From NCBI GenBank assembly GCA_049591295.1, contig JBAWEQ010000080.1, forward strand, positions 2,238 to 66,237: 64,000 nt of DNA. The letters run 5' to 3'. A model generated the notes under the pieces. It was not told where the DNA came from. It saw nothing but the letters and a program-made list of their open reading frames with translations, and did no database searches. This DNA comes from Acidobacteriota bacterium. Lineage in GTDB: Bacteria > Acidobacteriota > UBA4820 > DSQY01. The position numbers and the translations under genes were made by a program. This document shows positions 9,391-37,560 of this stretch, in pieces (the stretch's first letter is position 1; every line of letters starts with the position of its first letter).

Positions 9391-9628
9391 CGGGAAAGGC
9401 CCTCCGCAGAATCGAGCCGCGCCGGATGAACCAGAGGAACACCAGAAAAGCCGCGACCCCGAGCAGGCCGCCCAGGGCGATGATGAGCAGCGCCCTGACC
9501 GCCACTTCGCGCTGCCCCTCTGCCCCGCCGAACCAGGACCTCAGGGCCTCCAGGGCTGGGAAGCCCTCGAAGAGCATGTAGAGGGAGGATAAGAGGGCCT
9601 TGAGAATCCGGACCAGCCAGTCGAGCAC
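9380..9628 (-). CDS. Hypothetical small membrane protein
   Basis: 82 aa ORF with one hydrophobic helix; overlaps annotated rlpA start by 11 nt; weak. Confidence 0.25.
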   Translation of the reverse strand: MLDWLVRILKALLSSLYMLFEGFPALEALRSWFGGAEGQREVAVRALLIIALGGLLGVAAFLVFLWFIRRGSILRRAFPDER

Positions 9629-9695
9629 CCCGTCCTCCCGCCAGGCACCACGAGACCCGTCTCCGGTCAGCCGAGGGCGGACTCTCCGCCAGGGC

Positions 9696-10451: not shown

Positions 10452-12003
10452 GCCGGAAGTGCCTCGTGCCCGTGAAGACCATGGCCAGCTTGAGCCGGTC
10501 GGCGGCCTCGATGACCTCCGGATCCCGGATGCTTCCGCCCGGCTGGATCACGGCCGTGACGCCGGCTTCGGCCAGTTCCTCTACGCCATCCGGGAAGGGG
10601 AAGAAGGCGTCGGAGGCGGCCGAGCAGCCCTTCGTGTCGCGGTAGGCCTTCATCCGGGCGATCTTCACCGAATCCACCCGGCTCATCTGGCCGGCGCCCA
10701 CGCCCACGGTCCCCTCCGCGTCTCCGATGACGATGGCGTTGCTCTTCACGTGCTTGCAGACCTTCCAGGCCAGCTCCAGGGCGGTGGTTTCGGATTCCGT
10801 GGGAGCCCGCTTCGTGACCACCTTGCGCTCCTCGGGCAGGCCCGGCAGGTCCTGGGTCTGCACCAGCAGACCGCCGGCCACGCGCTTGAGGTCCCAGCCC
10901 GGGAAGGGATCCTGGTCCTTGAGCTCGATGATCCTGAGGTTCTTCTTCCGGGAGAGCACCTCCAGGGCCTTGGGCTCGAAGGAGGGGGCCACCACGATCT
11001 CCAGGAAGATCTCCGACAGGGCGAGGGCCGCCTCCCCGTCGCAGGGGACGTTGAAGGCCACGATGCCCCCGTAGGCCGAGAGCGAATCGGTCTGGAGGGC
11101 CCGGCGGAAGGCCGCCAGGGGCGTGGCCCCGAGGGCGGCCCCGCAGGGGTTGGTGTGCTTGATGATGGCGCAGGAGGGGCGCGGCAGCTCGCAGGCCAGG
11201 GCCCACGCCCCGTGCAGGTCCAGGAGGTTGTTGAAGGAGAGCTCCTTGCCCTGGTGCTGCCTCAGGGCCCCGAGGAAGCGGTCCCCCTCGCGGTAGAAGG
11301 CGGCCTCCTGCTGCGGGTTTTCGCCGTACCGCAGGCTCTGGGCCTTATGGACGAAAAGGGGCAGGAAATCGGGGAAGGTCCCTCCGTTGCGGACCAGCTC
11401 GCCCCCTTCCATGCGGATCGTGGAGAGATGGCGGGCGATGGCGCCGTCGTACTGCGCCGTCCGCTGGAAGGCCTTGGCGGAGAGCCTCAGCCTCGTCTCG
11501 GCGGTGACGCCCCCCTCGCGCTCGATCTCTTCCGTGAGCGGGCCGTAATCCGACGGGTCCACGACCACAGCCACGGATTCGAAGTTCTTCGCCGCCGAGC
11601 GGACCATGGAGGGGCCGCCGATGTCGATGTTCTCGACGGCCTCGGCGATGCTCGCCCCGGGAGAGGCCACCACCCTCTCGAACGGATAGAGATTGACGAC
11701 CACGAGGTCGATGGGCGCCCCGCCCAGCCGCTCCAGGTCCTTCAGGTGCTCCTCCGTGCGCCTCGCCAGGATACCGCCGTGCACGCGGGGATGCAGGGTC
11801 TTGACCCGCCCTTCCATGACCTCCGGGGAGCCCGTATAGGAGGCCACGTCCGTCACGGGCAGACCGGCCTCCCTCAGGAGCTTGGCCGTCCCGCCGGTGG
11901 AGAGCACCTCCACCCCGCGCCCGGTGAGGAAGCGGACGAACCCTTCCAGGTTCTCCTTGCGCGAAACCGAAATCAGAGCCCTCTGGATGGTCACCGTCTT
12001 CAT
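10444..12003 (-). CDS. purH: Bifunctional AICAR transformylase / IMP cyclohydrolase
   Basis: 519 aa; MGS-like N-terminal domain ([14 protein letters not shown]), full-length PurH similarity. Confidence 0.95.
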
Positions 12004-12072
12004 CGTTCTTCTCCGCTCTCATGGGCCGGGGACGGGCGCCGCCGACGTTCCCGGCATGGTGAAAGCCGCTGC

Positions 12073-12909
12073 TCAGGAGGCGTGCTTCTCCCCGGGATGA
12101 TAGAAGGGGGTCGCCGCCACGTCGCCCCCCATGGACTTCCACATATAAAACCAGCTCTTGGCCGCGTCGGAAACGGCGTGCGAGAGGACCACCTCGGCCA
12201 CGCCGAAGGCGTTGGAGCGGTCATCGAAGGTACTCGAGGAGACCCGCTTCCCGTGCGGGAAATAGCAGAAAAGCACCGCCTGCTCGTAGCGCGGCATGCC
12301 GTCCAGTCTGTGGATCAGGTAGGACCGCAGGTCCCCCGTCAGGGGCGGGCTGTCGTACCCGTCGAAGACGACCACCATGAGGGGCAGCTTGCGCTCCATG
12401 TAGGCGAGGTAGTCCGCCCGCACCTGCGCGGCCCTCGGATCCTGGCCCGCCCGGAGAGGATCGTTGAGCAGGTAGATGAGCCCGGCGGTCATCCCCATGT
12501 GGTAGGCCACCTGCTGGAACGGTTCCGTCGTCTGGAGAAGGGTGGGGACGAGGTCGAATTCCCGCACCGCCGCATCGAGGATGTCCGCCGTGGGCCTGGG
12601 GGCATAGCCCGCCAGGGCGTCGGACACCCCGCGATCCAGGTCAGTCCGATAGGCCAGCAGGGCGTTTCGGAGCGCCACCGGCGCCAGCCGCAGGGTCAGG
12701 TCCGTCATCCTCTTCGTGGTGGCGGGGCCGTAGGCGGCGTCCGCGGGAGCCGCGGCCGGGATGGGAACCGCCGGCGCCAACAGGAGAAGCCCGGCGAGGA
12801 AGAGAAGGAGACAGGGAGACAGGGAGACAGGGAGACAGGCGAAAAAAGGAAAGAGCCGGGGTACCGGGAGGCAGGGGAACCCAGGAGTCGCGGTCATTGG
12901 CTTTCTCAT
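12073..12909 (-). CDS. Hypothetical secreted protein; (GGAGACA)x4 heptamer repeat in the region encoding its signal peptide
   Basis: C-terminal globular 278 aa of the artefactual ORF 12073..14259, starting MRKPMTATPG...; the upstream remainder of that ORF is antisense to icd. Confidence 0.45.
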   Translation of the reverse strand: MRKPMTATPGFPCLPVPRLFPFFACLPVSLSPCLLLFLAGLLLLAPAVPIPAAAPADAAYGPATTKRMTDLTLRLAPVALRNALLAYRTDLDRGVSDALAGYAPRPTADILDAAVREFDLVPTLLQTTEPFQQVAYHMGMTAGLIYLLNDPLRAGQDPRAAQVRADYLAYMERKLPLMVVVFDGYDSPPLTGDLRSYLIHRLDGMPRYEQAVLFCYFPHGKRVSSSTFDDRSNAFGVAEVVLSHAVSDAAKSWFYMWKSMGGDVAATPFYHPGEKHAS

Positions 12910-12968
12910 GGTCTCATCTCCGGCGTGGCGACCCCGTCTCTTTTCCCTGTTTCGCTGTCTCTCTGTTT

Positions 12969-14387
12969 CTACCCTTTCATCTGCGCGATGACGGCGTCCC
13001 CGAACTCGGAGCACTTGAGCTCCTTCACGTCCTTGTGGCCCTCCGCCTTCATGAGGCGGGCGAAGTCGTACGTGACGGTGTGGGCGGCGATGGCGGATTC
13101 GATCCCCTTCACGAGCAGGTCGGCCGCCTCGGTCCACCCCAGGTGCCGGAACATCATCTCGCCCGAGAGGATGACGGAACCGGGGTTGACCTTGTCCAGG
13201 TTGGCGTACTTGGGCGCCGTGCCATGAGTGGCCTCGAAGATGGCGTGGCCCGACACGTAGTTGATGTTCCCGCCGGGGGCGATGCCGATGCCGCCCACCT
13301 GCGCCGCAAGGGCGTCCGAGAGATAGTCTCCGTTCAGGTTCAGCGTGGCGATGACGTCGAACTCGTCGGCCCGGGTGAGGGTCTGCTGGAGGGTGATGTC
13401 GGCGATGGTGTCCTTGAGCATGAGCTTGGACTTCCACTTGCCGTCGCCGTGGGTGGGCCAGAGCTTGAGGGTGTCCGCCACCTCCCGGACGATCTCGGCC
13501 TTCTTGTCCGGCGCGAACATGTCCAGGCCGGGCTCGATCATGCGGGCGTTCTCCTCGTCGCTCAGAGCGGGGTTCGCCTCCTTGTTGCCGAGGATCCAGC
13601 TCTCCCGGATCGTCACGGTCTCGCTCCGGAACTCCTCCGCCCCCACCTCGTAACCCCAGTCCTTGAAGGCGCCCTCGGTGAACTTCATGATGTTGCCCTT
13701 GTGGGTGAAGTTCACGCTCCTGCGGCGGTTCTTGAGGGCGTACTGGATGGCGGCGCGGCAGAGACGCTTGGAGCCGTCTTCGGAGACGGGTTTGATGCCG
13801 ATGCCCGAGGACTCGGGGAACCGGATCTTCTTGACGCCCATCTCCTTGATGAGGAAGTCGATGACCTTCTTCACCTCGGGGCTGTAGGCCTTCCACTCGA
13901 TGCCGGCGTAGATGTCCTCGGTGTTTTCCCGGAAGATCACCATGTCCACCTTCTCGGGGTGCTTCACGGGGCTGGGCACACCCTTGAAGTACTTCACCGG
14001 TCGCAGGCAGACGTAGAGATCGAGGAGCTGCCGGAGGGCCACGTTCAGCGAGCGGATGCCGCCGCCGATGGGAGTCGTGAGGGGGCCTTTGATGCCCACG
14101 AGATAGGTCTTGAAGGCCTCCACCGTGTCGTCCGGAAGCCACTCCCCGAACTTGTGGAAGGACTTCTCGCCGGCGAACACCTCCATCCAGGCAATCTTCT
14201 TCTTGCCCCCGTAGGCCTTCTCGACCGCCGCGTCCAGCACGCGCTGGGAGGCGCGCCAAATGTCGGGGCCCGTGCCGTCGCCTTCGATGAAGGGAATGAT
14301 GGGGTGATCAGGGACCTGAAGCTCCCCGCTTTTCATCTGAATGGGGGCGCCTTCCTTGGGTGGGGTGAGGGTCTTGAAAGTAGCCAC
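12969..14387 (-). CDS. icd: NADP-dependent isocitrate dehydrogenase
   Basis: 472 aa; typical dimeric prokaryotic IDH motifs ([15 protein letters not shown]). Confidence 0.95.
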
Positions 14388-16873: not shown

Positions 16874-17581
16874 ATGGCCTTGCTCCTCTTCGACATTGAC
16901 GGCACGCTGTTGAGACCCCTGGGCATCGGCCGAAGGGCCTTCGAGCGAGCCCTTCGGCGCCTCCACGGGTCCGTGCCCTCCGAGCGCTTCGGCTACGACG
17001 GCCTGCTTGATCCGGAGATCGCCCGCCAAACGTTGGCTCAGCTCGGCATTCCGCCGGAGCGGGCGGCCGTGGAATCCCTGCTGAACACTTACATTGAGGA
17101 ACTCGCGCGCGAGCCAGCCCCGCCCCGGCAGGAAGCTCTCTGCCCCGGCATCCCGGAGGTTCTCGAAGAGGCGCGGCAGCGGGGCCACCATCTCGGCCTC
17201 TTGACGGGGAACGTCCGGGCTGGGGCCGGGATCAAGATCGGGCTCCTGGGTCTTCTCGACTTCTTCAGGACGGCGCCGGAGGTCCCCCTCCTGGGTGCCT
17301 TCGGAGAAGACGCCCTGGAGCGGGCCTCGCTCGTTCCCGTCGCCCTGGCGCGGTGCGGAGCGGCCTTCGGCTCCGACTTCGATCCGGCCCACACCTGGAT
17401 CGTGGGCGACTCCCGCCGGGACGTGGCCGCCGCCAAGGCCGCGGGGATTCGGTGCGCGGCCGTGGCCACGGGCTTCACATCCCTCGGCGAACTGAGCTCT
17501 CTCGGCCCCGAATTAGCCCTGCCGGATCTCTCCGATCCGGCGCCGCTCCTGGACGGCGTGGAGGGGAGGGCCGCCGCATGA
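16874..17581 (+). CDS. HAD-superfamily hydrolase (phosphoglycolate phosphatase-like)
   Basis: LLFDIDGTL motif I, ...GLLTGN..., ...VGDSRRD... motifs. Confidence 0.75.
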   Translation: MALLLFDIDGTLLRPLGIGRRAFERALRRLHGSVPSERFGYDGLLDPEIARQTLAQLGIPPERAAVESLLNTYIEELAREPAPPRQEALCPGIPEVLEEARQRGHHLGLLTGNVRAGAGIKIGLLGLLDFFRTAPEVPLLGAFGEDALERASLVPVALARCGAAFGSDFDPAHTWIVGDSRRDVAAAKAAGIRCAAVATGFTSLGELSSLGPELALPDLSDPAPLLDGVEGRAAA

Positions 17582-19014
17582 GCGCCCATCCCCCGCGCAT
17601 GGACGTGCTCCTGGACTCGGGCGAGGCCAGGAGGCTGGAAGCCGAATTCGGCCGTGCCAGCCTCAAGGCCGCCCTCCGCGATGCCATGGCTGAGAATATC
17701 CGCCGCTGGCGCCAGGGGGGCGAGGCGCCCGCCCAGGCGGAGCTTCTGATTTCGGCGGAGCGCCTGCTGCGCGCGCGCTTCGATCCCCCCCTGCGCCGGG
17801 TCATCAACGCCACGGGAGTGGTGCTCCATACCAACCTGGGAAGGGCACCCCTCCCGAGCCGGGCACTGCGGCGGGCCTCGGAGCTGCTGGCCGGTTACGT
17901 GGACCTGGAGACGGACCTCTCGGCCCACGGCCGGGGCCACCGCGACGCCCGGTTGGAATCGGCCATTCAAGACCTGCTCCAGACCGACAAGGGGGTGGTG
18001 GCGGTGAACAACAACGCGGCCGCCGTCCTCCTCATGCTCAATACCCTGTCGGCCGGGCGGGAGACGCTCGTCAGCCGGGGGGAGCTCGTGGAGATCGGCG
18101 GCGGCTTCCGCATCCCCGAGGTCATGGCGGCCTCGGGAGCACGGCTGCGGGAAGTGGGAACCACCAACCGCACGCGCATCGCCGACTTTCGCTCGGCCCT
18201 CTCTCCGGCCTCGGCCCTGCTCCTAAACGTCCACCCCTCCAATTTCCGCATCCTGGGTTTCACCGAGCGCGCCTCTCTCGAAGAGCTGGTCAGCCTGGGG
18301 CGGGAGGTGCACCTTCCCGTGGGCTGCGACCTAGGCTCGGGGCTGTTGGCACCCGCGGGGGAGCTGGGCCTCCGGGACGAGCCCACGGTGCAGGAGGCCC
18401 TGGCCAGCGGGGCGGACGCCATCTGCTTCAGCACCGACAAGCTTTTCGGGGCCTGCCAGGGAGGGCTCCTACTCGTGGAACCCTCGCGCCTCAAGGCCTT
18501 CCGCACGAACCCCCTGCTGCGGGCACTCCGGGTGGACAAGGTCACCTACCTGCTCATGGGAGCGGCGGTGGAGGCGTACCGAAAGGGCCGCTGGCGGGAG
18601 CTGCCGGCCCTGGGGCTCCTGGCCGCCCCCAGGGGCGTTCTCCTCAGACGTGCCGGCCGGCTCAAGGCCGCCCTCGACCGGCTCGCCCCGGATCGATTCG
18701 AATCGTCCGTCGTGGAGGCCGAGGGCAGGGCGGGCGGAGGGACCGCCCCGCTCGACCCGCTCCCCTCCCCGGCACTCGCCCTGAAGCCCTCGCGGGGCAA
18801 GGCCCACGACCTCGAGGCCTACCTGCGCGCGGGAGGAGAGCCGCCGGTCGTGGGCGTGCTCGCGGAGGGCACCCTTCTGTTGCACGTGCGGACCCTGCTG
18901 CCGGGGGACGTCCCCGCGCTGCTGGACCGTCTTGCCCGCTTTCAGGGGTCCGCTCAGGAAAGCGACCCCACATCCCAGTCACCCATGTCGGCGACCCACC
19001 TTTTGCCGACGTAG
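17578..19014 (+). CDS. selA: L-seryl-tRNA(Sec) selenium transferase SelA
   Basis: VINATGVVLHTNLGRAPL, PLP-lysine region FSTDKLFGACQGGLL; ATG at 17578 overlaps the HAD stop (ATGA). Confidence 0.8.
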   Translation: MSAHPPRMDVLLDSGEARRLEAEFGRASLKAALRDAMAENIRRWRQGGEAPAQAELLISAERLLRARFDPPLRRVINATGVVLHTNLGRAPLPSRALRRASELLAGYVDLETDLSAHGRGHRDARLESAIQDLLQTDKGVVAVNNNAAAVLLMLNTLSAGRETLVSRGELVEIGGGFRIPEVMAASGARLREVGTTNRTRIADFRSALSPASALLLNVHPSNFRILGFTERASLEELVSLGREVHLPVGCDLGSGLLAPAGELGLRDEPTVQEALASGADAICFSTDKLFGACQGGLLLVEPSRLKAFRTNPLLRALRVDKVTYLLMGAAVEAYRKGRWRELPALGLLAAPRGVLLRRAGRLKAALDRLAPDRFESSVVEAEGRAGGGTAPLDPLPSPALALKPSRGKAHDLEAYLRAGGEPPVVGVLAEGTLLLHVRTLLPGDVPALLDRLARFQGSAQESDPTSQSPMSATHLLPT

Positions 19015-19563: not shown

Positions 19564-20045
19564 GGAGCCACCACCAAGGCCCCAAGACCCGAAGGGGAGA
19601 CTGAGGCAGTCAGGAGGCAACCGACAGGGCAAGCTCCGCGATCTTCGCGTCTCGCGTCTCGCCTCTCGCCTCTCGCCTCTCGCCTCTCGCGTCTCGCGTT
19701 TTGCGTTTCGCGTTTTGCCTCTCGCTCCTGTCTGGGGCAAATGGCGCTTCGGGGATAGAGTCCGGTTCACGGCGGGCCTTTCCTCTGCCACGGGCCGGTG
19801 GGCGCCCTTGATCCGCCTCTCCAAAGGAGGAGGGCGGAAGGCGGGTGGGGCATTTACCACCCTCCAGCCCCTCGCAGGCTGGCCATGGGGTTCCACCCGA
19901 GGGGGCGGCGTTATATTAGGCCCCTGGTTGTCGCGGGGCCTTGCAAACCAGGACAAAGGGGAATTGGGTGAGCCACCACGATCTACATTCCCGCTCCCAG
20001 CGCGGCCCGTCACAGGTTTCGATCCAGGGCCTCTTTCCCAGGCGA

Positions 20046-20747
20046 GTGACCATCGTCGCGGGCCATTTCGGGAGCGGCAAGACGGAGATCACGCTGAACG
20101 CCGCCGTGCGGCTGGCCCGCGAAGGCCAGACGGTCTCCCTCGTGGACCTGGACGTGGTCAAGCCCTACTTCCGCTCCCGGTCGGCGCGGGAGCTGCTGCG
20201 TCTCTCCGGCGTCGAACTCGTGGCGCCCATGGGCGAGTTCTACTCCTCCGACCTGCCCATCATCCTTCCCCAGATCCGCCAGCGCCTTCTGGACGGGACT
20301 CGCAAGGTGTTCATGGATGCGGGCGGGGACGACACCGGGGCCCGGGTGGTCGGCTCCCTCACCGACGTCATTCCGCCCGCCGAGAGCGAATTCCTCCTGG
20401 TCCTGAACTTCCGCAGGCCCTTCACCCCCGACGTGGATTCGGCCCTGGCCATGGCCAGGGAGATCGAGGCGAGGGGGCGGATGCGTCTCACGGGCCTGCT
20501 CTCCAACACGCACCTCATGGGCGAGACAACGGGGGAGGTGGTCCGGGAGGGCTTTCGGCTGGCCGCCGAGACGGCCCGGCGCCTCGGCCTGCCCCTGTTG
20601 GCCGTGGCCGTCGAGGAGGGCCGGGATCTGGGGCTCTGTGCCGAGGAGTTCCCCTGCCCGATCCTACCCATCACACGAATCGTCAAGCCCCCCTTCGAGG
20701 CGGACCGCGAGCAGCGCGCCGTGGGCCCCCTCTTCGTGGTGGGCTGA
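20046..20747 (+). CDS. Uncharacterised P-loop NTPase (SIMIBI-like), first gene of the OFOR operon; start uncertain (ORF opens at TTG 19941)
   Basis: Walker A VAGHFGSGKTE close to a GTG at 20046; Walker B-like VDLD; no characterised-family match. Confidence 0.45.
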   Translation: MTIVAGHFGSGKTEITLNAAVRLAREGQTVSLVDLDVVKPYFRSRSARELLRLSGVELVAPMGEFYSSDLPIILPQIRQRLLDGTRKVFMDAGGDDTGARVVGSLTDVIPPAESEFLLVLNFRRPFTPDVDSALAMAREIEARGRMRLTGLLSNTHLMGETTGEVVREGFRLAAETARRLGLPLLAVAVEEGRDLGLCAEEFPCPILPITRIVKPPFEADREQRAVGPLFVVG

Positions 20748-20761
20748 GAAAGGAGCCGCTT

Positions 20762-20995
20762 GTGCCGCAGATCGTCATCAACCGCGAACTCTGCAAGGGC
20801 TGCGAGCTGTGCGTGCACGCCTGCCCGCAGAAGATCCTGGGCATGGCCAAGGAGATCAACTCCAAGGGCTATTTCTTCGCTCAGGTGGAAGAGCAGAAGC
20901 GGTGCATCGGGTGCCGGCTCTGCTGCATCACCTGCCCCGACGTGGCCATCCAGATGCGCGTCCACGGGACCATGGTTCACTACTTTGCCTATTGA
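20762..20995 (+). CDS. korD: 2-oxoacid:ferredoxin oxidoreductase delta subunit (2x[4Fe-4S] ferredoxin)
   Basis: GTG start after SD GAAAGGAG; CKGCELCVHACP and CIGCRLCCITCP motifs; start coordinate is +/-1 nt. Confidence 0.75.
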   Translation: MPQIVINRELCKGCELCVHACPQKILGMAKEINSKGYFFAQVEEQKRCIGCRLCCITCPDVAIQMRVHGTMVHYFAY

Positions 20996-21183
20996 AGGCT
21001 CATGGCGAATTCAACAAGACGGCCGACGGCGAGCCGCTTCGGGATGCCGAGATGAGGAGATGAGGAGATGTCGAAGGGAACCGGCGGGAGGTGCTGCGGG
21101 TTCTTCTTGTCCCCCGTCCCTTGTCCCCTGTCCCCTGTCGCGCCTCGCGCTCCTCACTCCTCACTATCCCACGAGGGTCCCAC

Positions 21184-22272
21184 ATGGCTAAGAAATTGAT
21201 GAAGGGCAGCGAGGCCATCGGCGAGGCGGCCATCCAGGCCGGCTGCAAGCTCTTCTTCGGCTACCCCATCACGCCGCAGAACGAGATCCCCGAATACATG
21301 TCCCACCGCCTGCCGCAGATAGGCGGGACTTTCGTCCAGGCGGAGAGCGAGGTGGCGGCCTCGAACATGATCTACGGCGCCGCCGGCTCGGGGGAGCGCG
21401 TCTTCACCTCCTCCTCCTCGCCGGGCATCTCGCTCATGCAGGAGGGGATCTCCTACATCGCCGGCTCGGAGCTGCCTGTGGTTCTGGTCAACATCATGCG
21501 CGCCGGGCCCGGCCTGGGCGGAATCCTGCCCAGCCAGGCGGACTACTTCCAGGCCACCAAGGGAGGAGGCCACGGCGACTACCGCCTCCTCGTGCTGGCG
21601 CCGTGGTCCGTGCAGGAGGCGGCGGACCTCATCCAGGACGCCTTCGACCTGGCCGACTTCTACCGGAACCCCGTGATGATCCTGGGCGACGGCCTCATCG
21701 GCCAGATGATGGAGCCCGTGGAGTTCCATCCCGACCGCAAGCCCTGCAAAGAGCTCAAGCCCAAGGAGTGGGCGGCCACCGGCTGCAAGGGGGACCGGCC
21801 CACCAACATCATCAACTCCCTTTTCCTGGACCCGGCCGCCCTTGAGCAGCACAACCACAAGCTTCAGGCCAAGTACGAGGCCATGGCGCGGGACGAGATC
21901 CGATGCGCCGAGTACGGCACCGAGGAGCCTTACGACGTCCTGATCGTGGCCTACGGCACCGTGGCCAGGGTCTGCGTCACGGCCCTGGAGGACCTGAAGG
22001 AGGCGGGCATCCGCGCCGCCATGGTCCGGCCCATCACCCTCTTCCCCTTCCCCTACGCCCGGGTCCGGGCCGCCTCCGAAAAGGCCAAGGCGGTCCTGGT
22101 GGTGGAGCTCTCCTGCGGCCAGATGGTGGAGGATGTGCGCCTGGCCGTGGAGGGGACCCGTCCGGTTCACTTCTACGGCCGCCAGGGCGGCATGCTCGTG
22201 ACCCCCGAGGAGGTGGTGGACGAGATCCGGCGCCTCCTCACGGGGCCGCAACAGGAGGCCGACCATGCTTGA
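21184..22272 (+). CDS. korA: 2-oxoacid (2-oxoglutarate/2-ketoisovalerate):ferredoxin oxidoreductase alpha subunit
   Basis: MAKKLMKGSEAIGEAAIQAGC...FGYPITPQNEI typical KorA/VorA N-terminus. Confidence 0.85.
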   Translation: MAKKLMKGSEAIGEAAIQAGCKLFFGYPITPQNEIPEYMSHRLPQIGGTFVQAESEVAASNMIYGAAGSGERVFTSSSSPGISLMQEGISYIAGSELPVVLVNIMRAGPGLGGILPSQADYFQATKGGGHGDYRLLVLAPWSVQEAADLIQDAFDLADFYRNPVMILGDGLIGQMMEPVEFHPDRKPCKELKPKEWAATGCKGDRPTNIINSLFLDPAALEQHNHKLQAKYEAMARDEIRCAEYGTEEPYDVLIVAYGTVARVCVTALEDLKEAGIRAAMVRPITLFPFPYARVRAASEKAKAVLVVELSCGQMVEDVRLAVEGTRPVHFYGRQGGMLVTPEEVVDEIRRLLTGPQQEADHA

Positions 22273-23044
22273 GACCGTCTTCTGCCGGACACCGGCCCTC
22301 GCCGACGTCACCACGCACTACTGCCCCGGGTGCACCCACGGCGTCATCCACCGGCTCGTGGCCGAGGTGGTGGACGAGCTGGGGCTGAGGGAGCGCACCA
22401 TCGGCATCGCTCCCGTGGGCTGCTCGGTCCTCGCCTACAACTACTTCACCACGGACTTCCAGGAGGCCTCCCACGGACGGGCGCCGGCCGTGGCCACGGG
22501 GGTCAAGCGGGCGCGTCCCGACCTCATCGTCTTCTCCTACCAGGGGGACGGCGATCTCGCCTCCATCGGCATGGGAGAGATCGTCCACTGCGCCAACCGG
22601 GGCGAGAAGATCACGGTGATCTTCGTGAACAACGCCATCTACGGCATGACGGGCGGCCAGATGGCCCCCACCACCATGCCGGGCCAGATCGCCACGACGT
22701 GCCCGCTGGGGCGCGACGTGGAGCTTGCCGGCTACCCCATCCGCGTGGTCGAGCTGCTCTCCACCCTGAGAACCCCGGCCTTCATCGCCCGAGCGTCGGT
22801 CCACACACCCCTCTACACGGTCAACGCCAAGGAGATGCTCCGGCGCGCCTTCCGCCATCAGGCGGAGGGCCGTTGCTTCTCCCTCGTGGAGATCCTCTCC
22901 ACCTGCCCCACGAACTGGGGCCTGCCTCCCGCCGAGGCCACGCAGTGGCTGGAGCAGAACATGCTCCCCTACTACCCTCTGGGGATCTTCAAGGAACCGG
23001 GCGGCGAGGACCGCGCCCCCAGCCCCCTGGGAGGACGAAAGTGA
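22265..23044 (+). CDS. korB: 2-oxoacid:ferredoxin oxidoreductase beta subunit (ThDP-binding)
   Basis: YCPGCTHG ... GDGD ... ThDP motif. Confidence 0.9.
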   Translation: MLETVFCRTPALADVTTHYCPGCTHGVIHRLVAEVVDELGLRERTIGIAPVGCSVLAYNYFTTDFQEASHGRAPAVATGVKRARPDLIVFSYQGDGDLASIGMGEIVHCANRGEKITVIFVNNAIYGMTGGQMAPTTMPGQIATTCPLGRDVELAGYPIRVVELLSTLRTPAFIARASVHTPLYTVNAKEMLRRAFRHQAEGRCFSLVEILSTCPTNWGLPPAEATQWLEQNMLPYYPLGIFKEPGGEDRAPSPLGGRK

Positions 23045-23140
23045 AGAACCACCAAGACACCAAGACACGGACAGACCTGGGGTCCTTTGCAGCCGAGGAT
23101 TTCTTCTTGGTGCCTTCGTGCCTTTGTGGTGAATCCTTTT
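23045..23140. repeat. REP-like palindromic element inserted between korB and korC (caccaagacaccaag / cttggtgccttcgtgcc arms plus GGTGAATCCTTTTCC tail)
   Basis: Inverted copies of the CACCAAGACACCAAGG family seen at six other gene 3' ends in this window. Confidence 0.7.
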
Positions 23141-23152
23141 CCGGAGCTTTCC

Positions 23153-23713
23153 ATGCAGAATGATGTGATCATGGCGGGGTTCGGGGGCCAGGGCGTCCTG
23201 CTCATCGGGAAGATGCTGGCCTACGCCGGGATGCACGCCGGCAAGGAGGTCTCCTGGATGCCCTCCTACGGCCCCGAGATGCGCGGCGGCACGGCCAACT
23301 GCACGGTGGTCATCTCGGACCGCCCCGTGGGCTCGCCCGTCATCCAGTGCCCCAGGGCCGTGCTGGCCATGAACCTGCCCTCGCTGGACAAGTTCGAGTC
23401 CGCCCTCAAACCCGGCGGCCTTCTGCTGGTCAACACCTCCCTCATCAACCGCGAGCCCAAGCGGAGCGACGTGCGCGTGGTGAAGGTGCCCGCCAACGAC
23501 ATCGCCAACGAGCTGAAGAACCCCAAGGGGGCCAACATGGTGGCCCTCGGCGCCTACCTGGGCGCCACGGAGGCGGTGCCCCTGGAGGAGATGGAGAAGC
23601 TCATCCGGGACACCTTCGCCAGCAAGCCCGCCGTCGTCGAAGCCAACATCCAGGCCCTGCGCCGAGGCCACGAGCTGGGCCGCGCCCAGAGCCGGGGGGA
23701 GGGACATCCATGA
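23153..23713 (+). CDS. korC: 2-oxoacid:ferredoxin oxidoreductase gamma subunit
   Basis: MQNDVIMAGFGGQGVLL typical gamma-subunit start; 186 aa. Confidence 0.85.
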   Translation: MQNDVIMAGFGGQGVLLIGKMLAYAGMHAGKEVSWMPSYGPEMRGGTANCTVVISDRPVGSPVIQCPRAVLAMNLPSLDKFESALKPGGLLLVNTSLINREPKRSDVRVVKVPANDIANELKNPKGANMVALGAYLGATEAVPLEEMEKLIRDTFASKPAVVEANIQALRRGHELGRAQSRGEGHP

Positions 23714-24195
23714 TCGAACAGAGCTGCGCCCAGACGGCACCCCTGGAGGAGATCCTCGACCGCTACCCGCGGGAGGAGGCCTCCCTCATCCAGGTCCTCC
23801 AGGACGTGCACCGGGCCTACAACTACCTGCCCTGCGACGTGCTGGCCAAGGTGAGCGAAAGCCTCGGAGTGCCCCTCGCCAAAGTCTTCTCGGTCTCCAC
23901 CTTCTACAAGGCCTTTTCCCTGACGCCCCAGGGAAAGATCATCGTCAGGGTCTGCACCGGAACCGCCTGCCACATCCGCGGGGCCACGCAGCTCATCGAC
24001 GAGGCCCGGCGGCTTCTGGAGATCGCCCCCGGCGAGACCACCCCGGACATGGGCTTCACCCTCAAGACGGTGAACTGCGTCGGGGCCTGCGCCATGGCCC
24101 CGGTCCTCATCGTGGGGGAGAAGGTCCACGGCAACACCAAGCCGGCCAAAGTCGCCAAGGCTCTCGGCGTGGAGGAGAAACACCATGCGCATTGA
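23710..24195 (+). CDS. NuoE/HoxE-like thioredoxin-fold [2Fe-2S] subunit
   Basis: CTGTACHIRG ... CVGACAMAP motifs; ATG overlaps korC stop. Confidence 0.8.
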   Translation: MIEQSCAQTAPLEEILDRYPREEASLIQVLQDVHRAYNYLPCDVLAKVSESLGVPLAKVFSVSTFYKAFSLTPQGKIIVRVCTGTACHIRGATQLIDEARRLLEIAPGETTPDMGFTLKTVNCVGACAMAPVLIVGEKVHGNTKPAKVAKALGVEEKHHAH

Positions 24196-26089
24196 CAGCA
24201 GGGAGCGCTTCGACGCCGCGGTGAGCGAGGCCCTCGCCGGCCGAGAGGGTCACAAGACCGAGATCCTGGTCTGCTGCGGCACGGGCTGCCTGGCCAACGG
24301 GAGCCAGAAGGTGGCCGAGGCCTTTGCAGAGGAAGTGGAGAAGCGGGGCCTTAAGGCCAGCGTCGGCCTCTTCACCAAGAAGACCGGCTGCCACGGCTTC
24401 TGCGAGAAGGGGCCGCTGGTGGTCCTCCAGCCCTCGGGCGTCCTCTACACCAAGGTGGAGCCCCGGCACGTCCCGGACATCCTCGACAAGACGGTGGCCA
24501 AGGGAGAGCTGATCCCCCGCCTGCTCTACAAGGACCCCTCCACGAAGAAGCCCGTGGAGCGCTACGCCGAGGTCCCCTTCTACAAGAACCAGACCCGCAT
24601 CGCCATGCGGAACATCGGCAAGATCGATCCCGCGGACCTGGGCGACGCCCTCGCCCACGGCGCTTACGCCGGCCTGGCCAAGGCCCTCTTCGAGATGACC
24701 CCCGAGCAGGTGATCGCGGAGGTGGAGAGTTCGGGCTTGCGCGGCCGGGGCGGAGCCGGTTTCGTCACGGCCCGCAAATGGAAGGCCGCCCGCAAGGCCA
24801 AGGGAGAGAGGAAGTTCCTGCTGTGCAACGGGGACGAGGGCGACCCCGGCGCGTTCAAGGACCGCTCCATCATGGAGGGCGATCCCCACTCGGTGCTCGA
24901 GGGCATGGTGATCGGCGCCTACGCCGTCGGCGCCCACGAAGGGTACATCTACGTCCGCGACGAGTACCCCCTAGCCGTGGTCCACCTCACGCTGGCCATG
25001 GAACAGGCCCGGCAGGCGGGGATCCTGGGCCGCAACATCCTGGGAACGGGCTTCGACTTCGACATCCGCATCTCGCGGGGAGGAGGGGCCTTCGTCTGCG
25101 GCGAGTCCTCGGCTCTCATGCGCTCCCTCGAAGGCAAGACAGGCGAGCCGCGCCAGAAGTACGTCCACGCCACGGAGCGCGGCCTCTTCGACTGTCCCAC
25201 GGTTCTCAACAACGTGGAGACCTGGGCCGACGTGGGCGCCATCATCCAGAACGGGGGCGCCTGGTTCGCCGCCATGGGCACAGACAAGTCCAAGGGCACC
25301 AAGGCCTTCTCCCTGGTGGGCAAGGTGAAGAACACCGGGCTCATCGAACTGCCCATGGGCACCACGCTCCGCCACATCATCTACGACATCGGCGGGGGGA
25401 TCCTGGGCGACCGGCCCTTCAAGGCCGTTCAGACGGGGGGCCCCTCGGGCGGCTGCCTGCCCGAATCGCACCTGGACGATCCCGTGGACTACGAGAAGCT
25501 CACCGAAGCCGGATCCATGATGGGTTCGGGCGGCATGATCGTCATGGACGACCGAACCTGCATGGTGGACGTGGCCCGCTACTTCCTCCGCTTCCTCGTG
25601 GAGGAGTCCTGCGGCAAGTGCGTGCCCTGCCGGGAGGGGCTCAAGCAGATGCTCGTCATCTACGACGACCTCGTGGCCGGGCGCGGCAGGCCCGGAGACA
25701 TCGAGCGCATCGAGCGGCTCAGCGCCGGCATGCAGCTCGGCAGCCTGTGCGAGCTGGGCAAGAGCGCCCCCAACCCCGTCCTCTCCACGCTGCGGTATTT
25801 CCGGGACGAGTACCTGGCCCACATCGAGCAGAAGGCCTGTCCCGCCGGCATCTGCAGGGACCTCACGGCCTACGAGATCCTGGAGAGCTGCGAGGGCTGC
25901 GGCGTCTGCCTCAAGGCCTGCCCCACCGAGGCCATCACGGGGGAGAAGAAGGCCCTCCACGTGATCCACCAGGGCAAGTGCATCTCCTGCGGGGCCTGCT
26001 ACGAGGTCTGCCCCACCGACGCCATCCGCTTCTTCCCCAAGGCCGAGCTGGCCCCGGCGGCGGCCGCGAGCCGCGGAGGTGCCTCATGA
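24185..26089 (+). CDS. NuoF/HoxF/HndC-like NAD(P)H-binding flavoprotein subunit with N-terminal [2Fe-2S] and C-terminal 2x[4Fe-4S] domains
   Basis: GRGGAGF (FMN/NADH), CNGDEGDPGAF, SCGKCVPCREG, C-terminal CEGCGVCLKACP and CISCGACYEVCP. Confidence 0.85.
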   Translation: MRIDSRERFDAAVSEALAGREGHKTEILVCCGTGCLANGSQKVAEAFAEEVEKRGLKASVGLFTKKTGCHGFCEKGPLVVLQPSGVLYTKVEPRHVPDILDKTVAKGELIPRLLYKDPSTKKPVERYAEVPFYKNQTRIAMRNIGKIDPADLGDALAHGAYAGLAKALFEMTPEQVIAEVESSGLRGRGGAGFVTARKWKAARKAKGERKFLLCNGDEGDPGAFKDRSIMEGDPHSVLEGMVIGAYAVGAHEGYIYVRDEYPLAVVHLTLAMEQARQAGILGRNILGTGFDFDIRISRGGGAFVCGESSALMRSLEGKTGEPRQKYVHATERGLFDCPTVLNNVETWADVGAIIQNGGAWFAAMGTDKSKGTKAFSLVGKVKNTGLIELPMGTTLRHIIYDIGGGILGDRPFKAVQTGGPSGGCLPESHLDDPVDYEKLTEAGSMMGSGGMIVMDDRTCMVDVARYFLRFLVEESCGKCVPCREGLKQMLVIYDDLVAGRGRPGDIERIERLSAGMQLGSLCELGKSAPNPVLSTLRYFRDEYLAHIEQKACPAGICRDLTAYEILESCEGCGVCLKACPTEAITGEKKALHVIHQGKCISCGACYEVCPTDAIRFFPKAELAPAAAASRGGAS

Positions 26090-26859
26090 TCACCCTGACC
26101 GTCAACGGAAAGACCGTCCGCGCCCGGGAGGGTTCGCCCCTCCTGGAGGCCGTCCGCGCCGCCGGCGTCGAGATTCCGACCCTCTGCCAGCACGAGGCCC
26201 TGGAGCCCTGGGGGGGCTGCCGCCTCTGCCTGGTGGACGTGACCCGGCCCGAATGGAACGGCTGGGCCAAGATGGTGGTCTCCTGCATGTATCCCGCGGA
26301 GGAGGGGCTCATCGTCCAGACCCACACGGAGCGTGTCGTGGAGACGCGCAAGGTGGTGCTGGACCTGCTCCTCGCCCGCTGTCCCGAGACGCCTCTCATC
26401 CAGAGGCTGGCCCGGGAGCACGGCATCGAGGAGACCTCCTACCTGCCCAACCCCGAGCCCACGGACTGCATCCTCTGCGGCCTCTGCACGAGGGTCTGCG
26501 ACCACATCGGCGTCTTTGCCATCAGCTCCGTGAACCGCGGTGCCGGCCGGGAGATCGCGCCCCCCTTCCACGAGGCCCCGCCCGACTGCATCGGCTGCCT
26601 GGCCTGCGCCGAGGTCTGCCCCACCTCCTGCATCCCCTACGAGACCTCGGACGCCCGCAGGACCATCTGGAACAAGGCCTTCGAGATGGTGCGGTGCCCA
26701 AAGTGCGGCAAGGCCCACATCACGAAGGCCCAGGCCGACTTCTACGCGGGCAGGAACGGCGTCCCGCGGAGCTACTTCGAGACCTGCGACGCCTGCAAGC
26801 GCCAGGAGATGGCCCACACCTTCAGCAAGCTCTCGGCGGGCGCTGGGGTGGTGCGGTGA
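26086..26859 (+). CDS. NuoG-N-terminal/HoxU-like [2Fe-2S]+[4Fe-4S] electron-transfer subunit (no molybdopterin domain)
   Basis: Plant-type 2Fe-2S motif C-x10-C-x2-C, His-ligated cluster motif, CILCGLCTRVCD, CIGCLACAEVCP; 257 aa. Confidence 0.75.
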   Translation: MITLTVNGKTVRAREGSPLLEAVRAAGVEIPTLCQHEALEPWGGCRLCLVDVTRPEWNGWAKMVVSCMYPAEEGLIVQTHTERVVETRKVVLDLLLARCPETPLIQRLAREHGIEETSYLPNPEPTDCILCGLCTRVCDHIGVFAISSVNRGAGREIAPPFHEAPPDCIGCLACAEVCPTSCIPYETSDARRTIWNKAFEMVRCPKCGKAHITKAQADFYAGRNGVPRSYFETCDACKRQEMAHTFSKLSAGAGVVR

Positions 26860-26899
26860 GGCGGCGGATGATAGGCGACGGAGAGAGGAGAGGCCAGCC

Positions 26900-27367
26900 A
26901 TGACGAAGATCTACCGCGTTACCATCGAGCGATGCATCGCCTGCGGCAAGTGCGAACTGGCCTGCGCCTTCGCGCACGGCAGCGAGGGCAGGCCCAGCAA
27001 GACGCGAATCAACATCTTCCGGCGCGGCCCCGAGCTGGGCACGCCCGTGGTCTGTTTCCAGTGCGACGACGCCGCCTGCGCCTCCATCTGCCCCACCCAG
27101 GCCCTCGTGCGCAACGAGGCGACCGGCGCCATCGAGATGCTGAGGGAGCGGTGCATCGACTGCCGCCTGTGCGTCGCCGCCTGCCCCTTCGGCAACATGC
27201 TCTGGGACGAGGCCTACCACTGCGTCCAAAAGTGCGACCTCTGCGGAGGAGACCCCAAGTGCGTCCCCTTCTGCCCGACGCATGCCCTGGAGTACGTGCC
27301 GGCCGATGAAGCCGCCGCCAAACCCGAACCGCTGGTTTGGGAGGAGGCGGTGAGGGCCGGAAGCTAG
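26900..27367 (+). CDS. HycB/DmsB-like 2-4x[4Fe-4S] ferredoxin subunit
   Basis: CIACGKCELACA, CFQCDDAACASICP, CIDCRLCVAACP, CDLCGGDPKCVPFCP. Confidence 0.8.
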   Translation: MTKIYRVTIERCIACGKCELACAFAHGSEGRPSKTRINIFRRGPELGTPVVCFQCDDAACASICPTQALVRNEATGAIEMLRERCIDCRLCVAACPFGNMLWDEAYHCVQKCDLCGGDPKCVPFCPTHALEYVPADEAAAKPEPLVWEEAVRAGS

Positions 27368-27487
27368 AGGGAACCGAGATGAGGAGATGAGGTAATGAGG
27401 TAATGAGGTGATGAGGGGATGAGGTCTCGCCCGATCTTCCTTCCATCATCCATCATCCATCATCCATCATCCCCCAAGGAGCCGGCC

Positions 27488-28000
27488 ATGAGCGAACCGA
27501 AGGACCAGATCCGTGAGATCCTCAAGAAAGCCTACCAGATCGAGGTGGACGGCTACACCTTCTACTCCCTGGCCGCCGACAAGTCCACCAAACCGGCCGT
27601 CCAGGAGCTCTTCGAAAAGCTCGCCAAGGACGAGACCGAGCACAAGACCTACCTGCGCGAGGTGATGCGGCGCTACGAGGCCGAGGGGACCGGAGCCTTC
27701 ACGGTGGACCGGCGGGATCCCCAGGTCAAGGCCTTCACCGATGCCATCTTCACCCAGAAGTTCAAGGAGCAGGCCCACGGAGCGGCATTCGAGCTGGGCG
27801 CCCTCTCCGTGGGCATGCAGCTCGAGACCAACGCCATCGCCCACTTCTCCGCCGCGGCCGAGGCGGCCTCCGAGCGAGAGGTCCAGGAGTTCTACCGATT
27901 TCTCGCCCAGTGGGAACGGGGCCACTTCGAGGCCCTTCAGGCTCTCCACGCCCTCGTCCGGGCCGACTTCTGGGAGCAGGGGGGCTTCGCGCCGTTTTAG
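27488..28000 (+). CDS. Ferritin-like / rubrerythrin-family di-iron protein (no rubredoxin domain)
   Basis: Paired E...ExxH motifs (KDETEH, WERGHFE); 170 aa; TAG stop at 27998-28000. Confidence 0.65.
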   Translation: MSEPKDQIREILKKAYQIEVDGYTFYSLAADKSTKPAVQELFEKLAKDETEHKTYLREVMRRYEAEGTGAFTVDRRDPQVKAFTDAIFTQKFKEQAHGAAFELGALSVGMQLETNAIAHFSAAAEAASEREVQEFYRFLAQWERGHFEALQALHALVRADFWEQGGFAPF

Positions 28001-28144
28001 ACGCGAGACGCTAGACGCGAGACGCTGGACGCGAGGCGTTAGACGCCAGATGCGAGACGCGAGACGCAAAGAGCTTTCTTCACGTCTCGTAGTTCCCCAG
28101 TCCCCTCACCCGGGCCCTTGCTCCCTACCCGCCCCCTCCCTGAG

Positions 28145-28174
28145 TTGACAGCCCCTTTCTTCGGCTTTTATAAT
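28145..28174 (+). promoter_or_regulatory. Consensus sigma70 promoter TTGACA-N18-TATAAT upstream of pilB
   Basis: ttgaca gcccctttcttcggcttt tataat, about 45 nt upstream of the pilB ATG; stands out as AT-rich in a 67% GC background. Confidence 0.6.
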
Positions 28175-36227: not shown

Positions 36228-36418
36228 GGGAAAGAAGATTCCCATTTTAGAAAGTGAAAAGAATGCACCACCAAGACACCAAGGCACCAAGGGATCGTAA
36301 ATCGAATCTTGGAAAAAGCTCCTCCGGCCATCCCGCGTCTCCTAAGCATCTCATCCCCTCATCCCCTACTCACCTCATCACCTCATCACCTCATCACCCC
36401 ATCACCCCCGAGGCCTGA

Positions 36419-37420: not shown

Positions 37421-37500
37421 AGGGTGAAGGGTGAAGGGTGAAGGGTGAAGGGTGAAGGGTGAAGGGTGAAGGGTGAAGGGTGGAGGGTGAAGGGTGAAGG
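37414..37500. repeat. Heptamer microsatellite (GGGTGAA) x12
   Basis: Perfect tandem array beginning within the last codons of the GT2 gene. Confidence 0.95.
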
Positions 37501-37560
37501 GTGAGGAGTAGAGAGCCCATGACCCATCGGCCAGCAGCCATGGATTCAAGAAGAATCATG

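Follow-up and report, generated by a model that had tools for sequence, protein, structure and literature searches.

This locus raises the question of why the genes of a four-subunit 2-oxoacid:ferredoxin oxidoreductase (OFOR) should stand in one block with those of an electron-bifurcating (Bfu) flavoprotein core, when the block itself holds neither a hydrogenase nor a formate dehydrogenase. It lies on contig JBAWEQ010000080.1 of an anaerobic member of the Acidobacteria, in the 64,000 nucleotides that were analysed, referred to below as the window. The GC content of the window is about 66%, and the closest relatives of its proteins come from metagenome-assembled genomes (MAGs) labelled Thermoanaerobaculia, Thermoanaerobaculales or Acidobacteriota. 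Ten genes on the + strand, between 19968 and 28000, run from a P-loop NTPase to a ferritin/rubrerythrin-like protein. The reading we favour, and consider probable, is that the cassette encodes one soluble complex of eight subunits, in which a VorB-like OFOR is joined by a WorS-type polyferredoxin to a bifurcating BfuABC core. The features are as follows.

19968 (GTG start, 259 aa) or 20046 (233 aa) to 20747, + strand: SIMIBI-class P-loop NTPase, Walker A motif GHFGSGKT
20762-20995, + strand: OFOR delta, 77 aa, 2x[4Fe-4S] ferredoxin with two CxxCxxCxxxC motifs
20996-21183: intergenic gap between delta and alpha, 188 nt, with tandem arrays of 7-8-nt units, GAGATGAG, TGTCCCC and CTCCTCA (Tandem Repeats Finder, TRF)
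21184-22272, + strand: OFOR alpha, 362 aa, VorB-like, POR_N and PFOR_II domains, YPITP at residues 27-31
22265-23044, + strand: OFOR beta, 259 aa, thiamine pyrophosphate (TPP)-binding, TPP_enzyme_C domain, GDG-x24-NN at residues 94-123
23045-23152: intergenic gap between beta and gamma, 108 nt, with CACCAAGA / CTTCGTGC arrays (TRF)
23153-23713, + strand: OFOR gamma, 186 aa, POR domain (PF01558, 7.5e-46)
23710-24195, + strand: BfuC, NuoE/HydC-like, 161 aa, [2Fe-2S] cluster C1 (PF01257, 3e-47)
24185-26089, + strand: BfuB, NuoF/HydB-like, 634 aa, flavin mononucleotide (FMN)/NAD(H) site, B1, B2 site, B3/B4 and B5
26086-26859, + strand: BfuA, Type 2 / WorA-like, truncated NuoG-like, 257 aa, Fer2_4 domain and 2x[4Fe-4S]
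26900-27367, + strand: WorS/HycB-like polyferredoxin, 155 aa, 17 Cys, 4x[4Fe-4S]
27488-28000, + strand: ferritin/rubrerythrin-like di-iron protein without Cys, 170 aa (PF02915, 5.5e-15)

All eight genes named in the original prediction, from delta to the polyferredoxin, and the P-loop gene ahead of them, were found on the + strand in the places it gave. Its description of overlapping stop and start codons holds at four junctions, alpha/beta (8 nt), gamma/BfuC (4 nt), BfuC/BfuB (11 nt) and BfuB/BfuA (4 nt). Delta and alpha, beta and gamma, and BfuA and the polyferredoxin gene are separated by gaps of 188, 108 and 40 nt, respectively, rather than joined by overlaps.

The Bfu family was defined by its conserved BfuBC core (Schut et al. 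2022; PMC9304861). BfuB of the window matches PF01512 (7.5e-44) and PF10589 (3.7e-31), and SLBB and NADH_4Fe-4S domains are also present. It carries in addition an N-terminal thioredoxin-like [2Fe-2S] domain (PF01257, residues 24-102; cluster B5) and a C-terminal 2x[4Fe-4S] domain (Fer4, residues 565-615; clusters B3 and B4). The core motifs are GRGGAGF, DEGDPGAFKDR, GGGAFVCGE, TCMVD, CGKCVPC and LCELG, and those of the extra clusters are CCGTGC..CHGFC, CEGCGVCLKACP and CISCGACYEVCP, CxxCxxCxxxCP occurring twice in the protein. The B2 site is complete (Cys459 in TCMVD, His546, Cys552 and Cys557; HIEQKACPAGIC), and its fifth ligand position, Cys476, is Ala, as in Zn-type sites. The corresponding ligands of Acetomicrobium mobile BfuB (Cys438, His525, Cys531 and Cys536) occur in all 1,558 Bfu sequences and are absent from the non-bifurcating homologues, ie NuoF, HoxF and FdsB (PMC9304861, Supp. 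Fig. 9). They are kept in most of the related loci that were scanned, a few sequences missing one search pattern. A further signature of bifurcating BfuB in the FMN/NADH domain consists of Ala202, Met204 and Phe282 in the A. mobile numbering (PMC9304861). The window protein keeps Ala202 and Phe282, and has Lys in place of Met204 (in DEGDPGAFKDR, residues 217-227, window 24833-24865).

The top PDB matches of BfuB are 9mqx_B (WorB, 7.5e-233), NiFe-HydB (3.4e-227) and then FeFe-HydB, all of them bifurcating; the non-bifurcating Thermus Nqo1 follows at 9e-115 with coverage of the core only. BfuC has four Cys (82, 87, 123 and 127) for a single [2Fe-2S] cluster, and its top PDB match is 9mqx_C (WorC, 1.1e-42). 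The original prediction had called this module both the electron-input core of the bifurcating hydrogenase and formate dehydrogenase family and HoxEFU-like. The former label is borne out by the extra cluster domains of BfuB and its Cys/His/Cys/Cys B2 site. The latter is the weaker of the two, all the NuoE/F/G and HoxE/U scores from NCBIfam falling below their cut-offs (nuoF_fam 462 against 558.65, HoxE 132 against 224, HoxU 108 against 333, NuoE 129 against 141). An identity as NuoEFG or HoxEFU was rejected on these scores, together with the extra BfuB domains and the B2 ligands.

The third Bfu subunit, BfuA, is closest in the PDB to 9mqx_A (WorA, 2.9e-54), aligned over residues 4-246 with both CxxC pairs included. 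Ligands for the [2Fe-2S] cluster A1 (Cys34, 45, 48 and 67) and two CxxCxxCxxxC motifs for A2 and A4 are present. No HxxxCxxCx5C motif was found in the 257 residues, ie A3 is absent; both the His-ligated A3 and A5 are missing. Four Cys of a predicted zinc finger, CPKC at 204-207 and CDAC at 234-237 (window 26695-26706 and 26785-26796), align with the WorA pairs and are followed by a tail of 20 residues in which K238, R239 and L249 are conserved. A looser KRxxxAxxF pattern is common to this tail and to RKREYASKF of WorA, and the AlphaFold2 (AF2) model has a helix at 235-253 with a predicted local distance difference test score (pLDDT) of about 84. The structure 9MQX is the cryo-electron microscopy model of WorABC(SL)3, a bifurcating tungsten aldehyde oxidoreductase; in it WorA is without cluster A3, has a four-Cys zinc finger, and recruits the four-cluster WorS by a C-terminal alpha-helix, and WorS passes electrons to A4 over a distance of 10.7 Å from S4 (PMC12318220).

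The gene after BfuA encodes just such a four-cluster protein. Its top PDB match is 9mqx_E (WorS, 5.8e-38); the alignment spans residues 1-139 and includes each of the 16 ligand Cys. What had been described earlier as a HycB-like ferredoxin is thus present, and can be refined to a homologue of the WorS connector; likewise the truncated NuoG can be refined to a WorA-type BfuA with a predicted docking helix. The remaining 29 residues of the polyferredoxin (VPADEAAAKPEPLVWEEAVRAGS) are Pro/Glu-rich and lie outside the WorS alignment, and polyferredoxins from distant loci of the same type have only 7-8 residues at the corresponding C-terminal tail, so that a nanowire in the style of WorS is doubtful for the window subunit. 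The top NCBIfam match of the polyferredoxin is to the first 130 or so residues of PadI (3.4e-29). The PadI profile describes a HycB-like module (9-139) fused to an ordinary OFOR beta subunit (144-435); since a HycB/WorS-like module and an OFOR beta are fused there, docking of the separate polyferredoxin onto beta/delta is plausible, and by this analogy it may bridge the OFOR and BfuA.

In about a third of the cassette carriers the BfuA finger has been lost (RDPxTGE...TSDxSKR) and the tail kept (loci L001, L008, L011, L012, L014, L015, L017-L023, L028 and L049). Mostly all four Cys are gone, L028 retaining one, which fits with the four Cys acting as one site. Their concerted loss, with retention of the tail, suggests that the finger is dispensable and the tail is not.

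Turning to the catalytic partner, the full set of OFOR motifs is present, ie YPITP in alpha, GDG..NN and the cluster Cys in beta, the POR domain in gamma and 2x[4Fe-4S] in delta. Cys20, Cys23, Cys53 and Cys214 of beta are candidate ligands of the proximal [4Fe-4S] cluster. Judged by domains and motifs, the OFOR is complete for an active enzyme, and so is BfuBC for a core of the bifurcating type. Alpha scores 536 bits against the NCBIfam 'VorB' model PRK07119 (cut-off 399), over the full length of the profile; this is a subfamily-type model and not an equivalog. The alphas of related loci in a Phycisphaerales and a Myxococcales MAG also pass it (L025, 519 bits; L036, 506 bits). Against PorA_Arch the window alpha reaches only 95 bits (cut-off 550) and so does not qualify as POR-type. 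The top NCBIfam matches of delta, OGOR_delta, OorD and PorD_KorD, are all under cut-off. Relatives in the PDB are the Pyrococcus furiosus 2-ketoacid enzyme (1yd7), Helicobacter pylori OorA (8ys5) and the Magnetococcus marinus OGOR (6n2n). Assignment of a substrate by similarity was dropped, as NCBIfam points to VorB, the PDB neighbours are of the KOR/OGOR type, and the four-subunit arylpyruvate enzyme HpdDEFG, which is VOR-related and clusters with VORs, is specific for (hydroxy)phenylpyruvate (PMC13285125, 2026). We commit only to a predicted 2-oxoacid substrate outside the classical POR profile.

Comparison of genomes shows these genes kept together. A BfuA alignment was scanned against one genome per GTDB species, giving 80 loci (prefixed L here), and homologues of the ten window proteins were placed in them by tblastn, which resolved four architectures, G1 to G4. 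The window type, G1, accounts for 40 loci and has the order P-loop, delta, alpha, beta, gamma, BfuC, BfuB, BfuA, polyferredoxin. The synteny search that the original prediction had proposed as a check gave a clear answer: in 30 of the 40 loci all nine genes are present in identical order and strand, with no violation of either. Because 30 complete sets without a single departure in order were found among 40 related loci, the arrangement is far beyond chance. The MAGs concerned are labelled Acidobacteriota/Thermoanaerobaculia/Holophagae, Myxococcota, Phycisphaerales/Planctomycetota, Thermodesulfobacteriota and 'Deltaproteobacteria', and identity to the window proteins is 56-83% for alpha and 40-79% for BfuA. 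No shared neighbours hinting at a pathway were seen in the G1 loci examined; the genes on either side vary between loci, and it is therefore the cassette itself that is the conserved unit.

The other three architectures place the BfuA tail in context. G2, the published Por-Bfu type, has the order PorG(D)-PorA-PorB-BfuCBA and was found in Dehalococcoidia, Bacillota and Syntrophorhabdaceae; its OFOR subunits are only 24-31% identical to those of the window, and those of one locus, L040, score 431 bits for PorB (cut-off 405) and 493 bits for PorA_Arch. Neither a polyferredoxin nor a P-loop gene was found in the G2 loci by tblastn with the window proteins. G3 is Wor-Bfu, in Eubacterium callanderi and others (AOR domains were confirmed with Pfam in L046), and G4 is CooS-CooF-BfuCBA adjoining acetyl-CoA synthase. 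Across the 80 loci the BfuA tail goes with a WorS/CooF-type polyferredoxin: G1, G3 and G4 have both, whereas BfuA of G2, where there is no polyferredoxin, ends at the second CxxC. Por-Bfu has been noted to be without a WorS homologue and its WorA homologue to be without the C-terminal helix (PMC12318220); the co-occurrence of tail and polyferredoxin matches that remark and extends it.

Two of these architectures hold further observations. In L041 (5254-12939) CooS (Prismane/CODH), a CooF-like polyferredoxin, BfuC, BfuB, a tailed BfuA and acetyl-CoA synthase follow one another, with MTHFR just upstream, and in L064 (about 6847-13235) a polyferredoxin-BfuCBA block is followed by acetyl-CoA synthase. 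These two were scanned with Pfam; a similar order was seen by tblastn in L042-L044, L060, L071, L077, L078 and L080, and among the MAGs that share the polyferredoxin-BfuCBA order are some labelled Planctomycetia, Acidobacteriota, Hydrogenedentota and Firestonebacteria. Loci of the L041 type correspond to the predicted 'CodhABCSF', which seems to be embedded in Wood-Ljungdahl clusters and extends well beyond the Firmicutes. In the tail-less type, BfuCBA of a Syntrophorhabdaceae MAG (L068, 3054-10708) is preceded by two POR-like alpha-beta pairs in succession.

The concept of an OFOR-Bfu enzyme is already in print. Por-Bfu (Por-BfuABCDEFG) was predicted as ABC plus four POR subunits from 12 sequences in Chloroflexi and Proteobacteria, with Dehalococcoides mccartyi 195 as type example (PMC9304861). 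The window cassette resembles it in having four-subunit OFOR genes directly and contiguously upstream of bfuC-bfuB-bfuA, a Type 2 BfuA (A1, A2 and A4 only) with a four-Cys finger, and a predicted oxidation of 2-oxoacids coupled to NAD+ and ferredoxin, both systems being known from their genes alone. It is nevertheless a distinct variant. Por-Bfu of the Dehalococcoidia type (L039, L040 and relatives) has a POR-type OFOR in the order gamma(delta)-alpha-beta, its BfuA stops after the second CxxC, and it has neither a WorS/HycB gene nor a P-loop gene; the window has a VorB-like OFOR in the order delta-alpha-beta-gamma, a BfuA tail, a WorS homologue and a leading NTPase. Filing the cassette as published Por-Bfu was rejected, as three defining features differ: the BfuA tail and the WorS homologue are present and the OFOR is not POR-type. 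It represents a second solution for linking an OFOR with the bifurcating core, by way of another OFOR clade and a Wor-type connector. No earlier description of an OFOR, WorS and Bfu arrangement was found in the literature searched, subscription journals not being covered.

The closest solved homologues of BfuA, BfuB, BfuC and the polyferredoxin are all chains of WorABC(SL)3 from A. mobile. The likeness extends to the loss of A3, the Cys pattern of the zinc finger, the C-terminal adaptor helix of the A subunit and the four-cluster S subunit. The catalytic partner differs, being the tungstopterin protein WorL in that complex and a four-subunit TPP/Fe-S OFOR in the window, and so does the gene order, as S-L precede C-B-A in Wor loci and S follows A here. 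In the NADH-dependent phenylglyoxylate dehydrogenase PadEFGHI (NCBIfam NF045762-NF045766) an OFOR core also delivers electrons to NAD+, but the HycB-like module is fused to the N-terminus of the PadI beta subunit, whereas the window polyferredoxin is a separate gene. The Pad scores of the window proteins are far under cut-off (PadG 55.5 against 700; PadI 47 for beta and 102 for the polyferredoxin against 700; PadE 59.9 against 300). The NAD module of Pad is, as far as is known, a different flavoprotein and not BfuBC. The VorB-type OFORs, to whose PRK07119 family the window alpha belongs by score, work with free ferredoxin and are not accompanied by Bfu genes; the order delta-alpha-beta-gamma matches the vorC-vorB-vorA arrangement of methanogens. 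The predicted Codh-Bfu (CodhABCSF; L041, L064) shares with the window the plan of a catalytic subunit, a CooF/WorS-type polyferredoxin and BfuCBA with a tailed BfuA, but its partner is CooS in a Wood-Ljungdahl cluster and its polyferredoxin precedes BfuC.

By homology to WorABCSL, an electron path through the proposed complex can be drawn. The 2-oxoacid would be decarboxylated with CoA at the TPP site, and the electrons would pass from the [4Fe-4S] cluster of beta to the two clusters of delta and on through the four clusters of the HycB/WorS-like subunit. They would enter BfuA at A4, continue through A2 to A1, and reach BfuB at B1 and then the FMN. There the electrons would be split, a hydride going to NAD+ and low-potential electrons travelling by the BfuC cluster (C1) and B3/B4 to ferredoxin. 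The predicted net reaction is

2 R-CO-COO- + 2 CoA + NAD+ + 2 Fd(ox) -> 2 acyl-CoA + 2 CO2 + NADH + 2 Fd(red)

By analogy with its relatives, the most likely function is thus oxidation of a 2-oxoacid with CoA and simultaneous reduction of NAD+ and ferredoxin. The suggestion made earlier from this DNA, that the enzyme is a 2-oxoacid enzyme linked to NAD(H) and ferredoxin, is supported by the extra cluster domains and B2 site of BfuB, by the absence of a catalytic subunit for H2 or formate from the scanned ORFs of the window, and by conservation of the cassette as a block. Thermodynamically, oxidation with bifurcation is the natural direction. It has been proposed for Wor-, Por- and Codh-Bfu that coupling to NAD+ reduction enables ferredoxin to be reduced at low ratios of substrate to product (PMC9304861).

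A number of points weigh against this reading. Purification has not been achieved for any OFOR-Bfu, and Por-Bfu itself is a bioinformatic prediction (PMC9304861). The repeat-filled gaps of 188 and 108 nt break up the OFOR genes in this genome. As a whole, the AF2 model of BfuA is of low quality (predicted template-modelling score 0.55; TM 0.43 to 9mqx_A), and for that reason only its secondary structure and top match were used. Contact between the polyferredoxin and the OFOR is proposed solely from the analogy of the PadI fusion. A crude neighbour-joining tree of BfuB does not bring all the cassette carriers into one clade; its deep nodes are unresolved and some carriers scatter, and it was used neither for nor against a single origin of the cassette. 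The replacement of Met204 by Lys is shared by all loci of the Acidobacteria-like subclade (L002-L024 and L049), and Lys is the residue found there in the non-bifurcating NuoF and HoxF; Schut et al. also concede that a 2-oxoacid couple near -500 mV could reduce both NAD+ and ferredoxin without bifurcation (PMC9304861).

Three other explanations were considered. The long gaps that part the OFOR genes would suit two separate co-expressed enzymes, a ferredoxin-dependent OFOR and a stand-alone BfuABC-S working between ferredoxin and NAD(H) with no physical link, and synteny by itself cannot tell a complex from a partnership through free ferredoxin. We think this improbable, and the least probable of the three: BfuABC needs a third redox partner through BfuA and the cassette offers only the OFOR, its neighbours being unrelated, the strict gene order and the gamma/BfuC overlap are kept across phyla, and the PadI fusion may be taken as a sign that a polyferredoxin of this kind binds OFOR beta. 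A single complex which does not bifurcate is a little easier to entertain, though still unlikely. Such an enzyme would simply be a 2-oxoacid oxidoreductase that reduces NAD+ or uses NADH, like PadEFGHI or the NAD-linked AorABC, in which the extra BfuB clusters are wire only, or vestigial. In its favour, the NADH-site motif has the Lys typical of non-bifurcating homologues, the low potential of the donor would allow either acceptor to be reduced directly (PMC9304861), and curated families and structures exist for OFOR and AOR enzymes that are NAD-linked and have HycB-like modules. Set against this, the cassette carriers keep the B3/B4 and B5 domains and most loci scanned keep the B2 ligands, the closest structures by sequence are all bifurcating with Nqo1/NuoF far lower and over the core only, and the more distant carriers of the same cassette retain Met204. 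Moreover Wor-Bfu, with a donor of even lower potential, is strictly coupled (PMC9304861).

The same complex could also run in reverse, with NADH and reduced ferredoxin driving the reductive carboxylation of acyl-CoA to a 2-oxoacid for the synthesis of amino acids or pyruvate; to this we give about the same small weight as to the non-bifurcating enzyme. The characterised anchor of the VorB family, an anabolic methanogen enzyme, counts in its favour. Bfu enzymes are reversible, a 2-oxoacid-synthase role has been proposed for Por-Bfu in Dehalococcoides (PMC9304861), and the reverse role has been proposed in M. thermoautotrophicum too (PMC13285125). The energetics are unfavourable, however, as the mean potential of NADH (about -280 mV) and ferredoxin should lie well above the -500 mV or so needed; electrons from NADH raise the mean potential of the donor, and carboxylation should therefore be more difficult with confurcation than with ferredoxin by itself. 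The carriers are also of heterotroph-type lineages, and no carbon-fixation genes were seen among the scanned flanks of the cassette. We therefore retain the oxidative, bifurcating complex as the preferred reading. A wider claim, on which we are evenly divided, is that the cassette defines an undescribed class of Bfu enzyme, in which a VorB-type OFOR, a WorS-type polyferredoxin, a tailed BfuA with BfuBC and a SIMIBI NTPase of its own came together independently of the POR-type Por-Bfu. Its genes are widespread (Thermoanaerobaculia, other Acidobacteriota, Myxococcota, Planctomycetota and Thermodesulfobacteriota), and it would couple the reduction of NAD+ and ferredoxin obligately in the oxidation of 2-oxoacids derived from amino acids.

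Why a donor near -500 mV should need bifurcation is left unresolved in the field's own papers. The cassette provides a second, independently wired example of an OFOR-Bfu together with a structural hypothesis, ie that the BfuA tail binds S and S binds the OFOR. If this is true, the bifurcating plug with an iron-sulfur connector of the WorS type would be a portable adaptor between catalytic modules and the core, TPP enzymes included. The phyla that carry the cassette are abundant in soil and sediment and are missing from the founding survey's list for this enzyme type; real coupling would alter how electrons and ATP are accounted for when amino acids and organic acids are oxidised anaerobically in these lineages. 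Should the enzymes with Lys at Met204 prove to be non-bifurcating, they would serve as a natural test for the residues that make Bfu enzymes bifurcating.

Two of the ten genes stand outside the proposed complex. The P-loop gene leads the cassette, as the original prediction had it, and is the first gene in 32 of the 40 G1 loci, at 36-65% identity. The true start is probably GTG at 19968 and not the one proposed earlier, 20046, because conservation in the family extends upstream of 20046 and a homologue 94% identical to the window protein (P0241) has 259 aa. The protein has no Pfam or NCBIfam match over cut-off, CbiA/ParA matches in Pfam lying below it, and an attempt to identify it by sequence search of the PDB returned Walker-A matches only. 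Its AF2 model (pLDDT 85.7) resembles SRP54/FtsY, ATPase-type HypB, MinD and NifH in Foldseek with TM of about 0.5, a likeness at the level of the SIMIBI class only. More than 1,200 relatives exist, nearly all unnamed or 'hypothetical', with a few labelled RecA/RadA recombinase or CbiA. Many SIMIBI proteins insert metal centres, and on that analogy the likeliest role of the NTPase, as a reasonable guess and no more, is in assembly or in maturation of a metallocentre.

The ferritin-like protein has ExxH motifs at 49, 94 and 143. Its gene directly follows the polyferredoxin gene in 23 window-type loci and is a syntenic tenth gene of the Acidobacteria-like subclade only; a 24th match, in L038, is about 2 kb distant and on the other strand. 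In Thermotoga a rubrerythrin adjoins BfuB in 'Rub-Bfu' (PMC9304861). The protein may protect an oxygen-sensitive complex or accept electrons from it.

The scanned surroundings offered no other partner for the core. The window was scanned over coding-like open reading frames (ORFs) of at least 250 aa selected with a GC3 filter, together with the neighbours of the cassette; smaller picked ORFs (138-167 aa) fell outside the scan, and the filter picked nothing at 42.3-47.7 kb and 53-58.4 kb. Among the scanned ORFs no hydrogenase or formate dehydrogenase family was found, in agreement with the original prediction, nor did a catalytic subunit of either kind lie just beyond the cassette. Upstream the cassette is flanked by genes for SelA and a HAD hydrolase and by a small lipoprotein-like ORF, and downstream by those for PilB, PilT and PilC, so that a hydrogenase or formate dehydrogenase just outside the cassette was rejected. 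The other scanned ORFs are of housekeeping and polysaccharide types, ie regulators, PurH, isocitrate/isopropylmalate dehydrogenase, Asn synthase and glycosyltransferase/NeuB/DegT polysaccharide genes. The domains of WorL, AFOR_N and AFOR_C, were likewise absent from the cassette and the scanned ORFs, and no catalytic subunit for H2 or formate was seen among the scanned ORFs flanking the cassette in five distant loci.

A 12/12 match to the sigma-70 consensus (TTGACA, 18 nt, TATAAT) lies at 28145-28174, upstream of pilB; by its sequence this predicted promoter marks a separate transcription unit after the cassette. The selA gene (selenocysteine synthase, 17575-19014) is about 950 nt upstream of the cassette, and its presence implies that the organism makes selenoproteins. 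Rfam and tRNA scans of the window found nothing. At 42000-44000 and 52000-58000 the GC content falls to 49-55% from about 66%, with strongly negative GC skew, among glycosyltransferase, NeuB, DegT and epimerase genes; these stretches are probably a horizontally acquired surface-polysaccharide cluster. Longer intergenic tandem repeats with units of 45 nt (40339-40458; 2.7 copies, 96% matches) and 21 nt (38184-38422) adjoin an Asn-synthase-like gene and a 587-aa ORF without a Pfam match.

Finally, all along the window the spaces between genes are filled by tandem arrays whose 7-8-nt units come from a limited common set, GCGAGAC/GTCTCGC, GATGAGG/CCTCATC, CACCAAGG/CCTTGGTG, GGGGACA/TGTCCCC and GGTGAAG. 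Their positions are as follows.

At or near the cassette: 19645-19725, 21049-21165, 23050-23128, 27378-27472 and 27999-28067
Elsewhere in the window: 2750-2953, 5108, 8508, 12807, 32459, 36269-36406, 37402-37504 and 61515-61736

The arrays account for the unusually long gaps within the operon; at the delta to alpha junction of a relative, L002, the gap is about 10 nt. The array before the operon (TCGCGTC x11.6) is the reverse complement of the one after the ferritin-like gene (AGACGCG x9.9).

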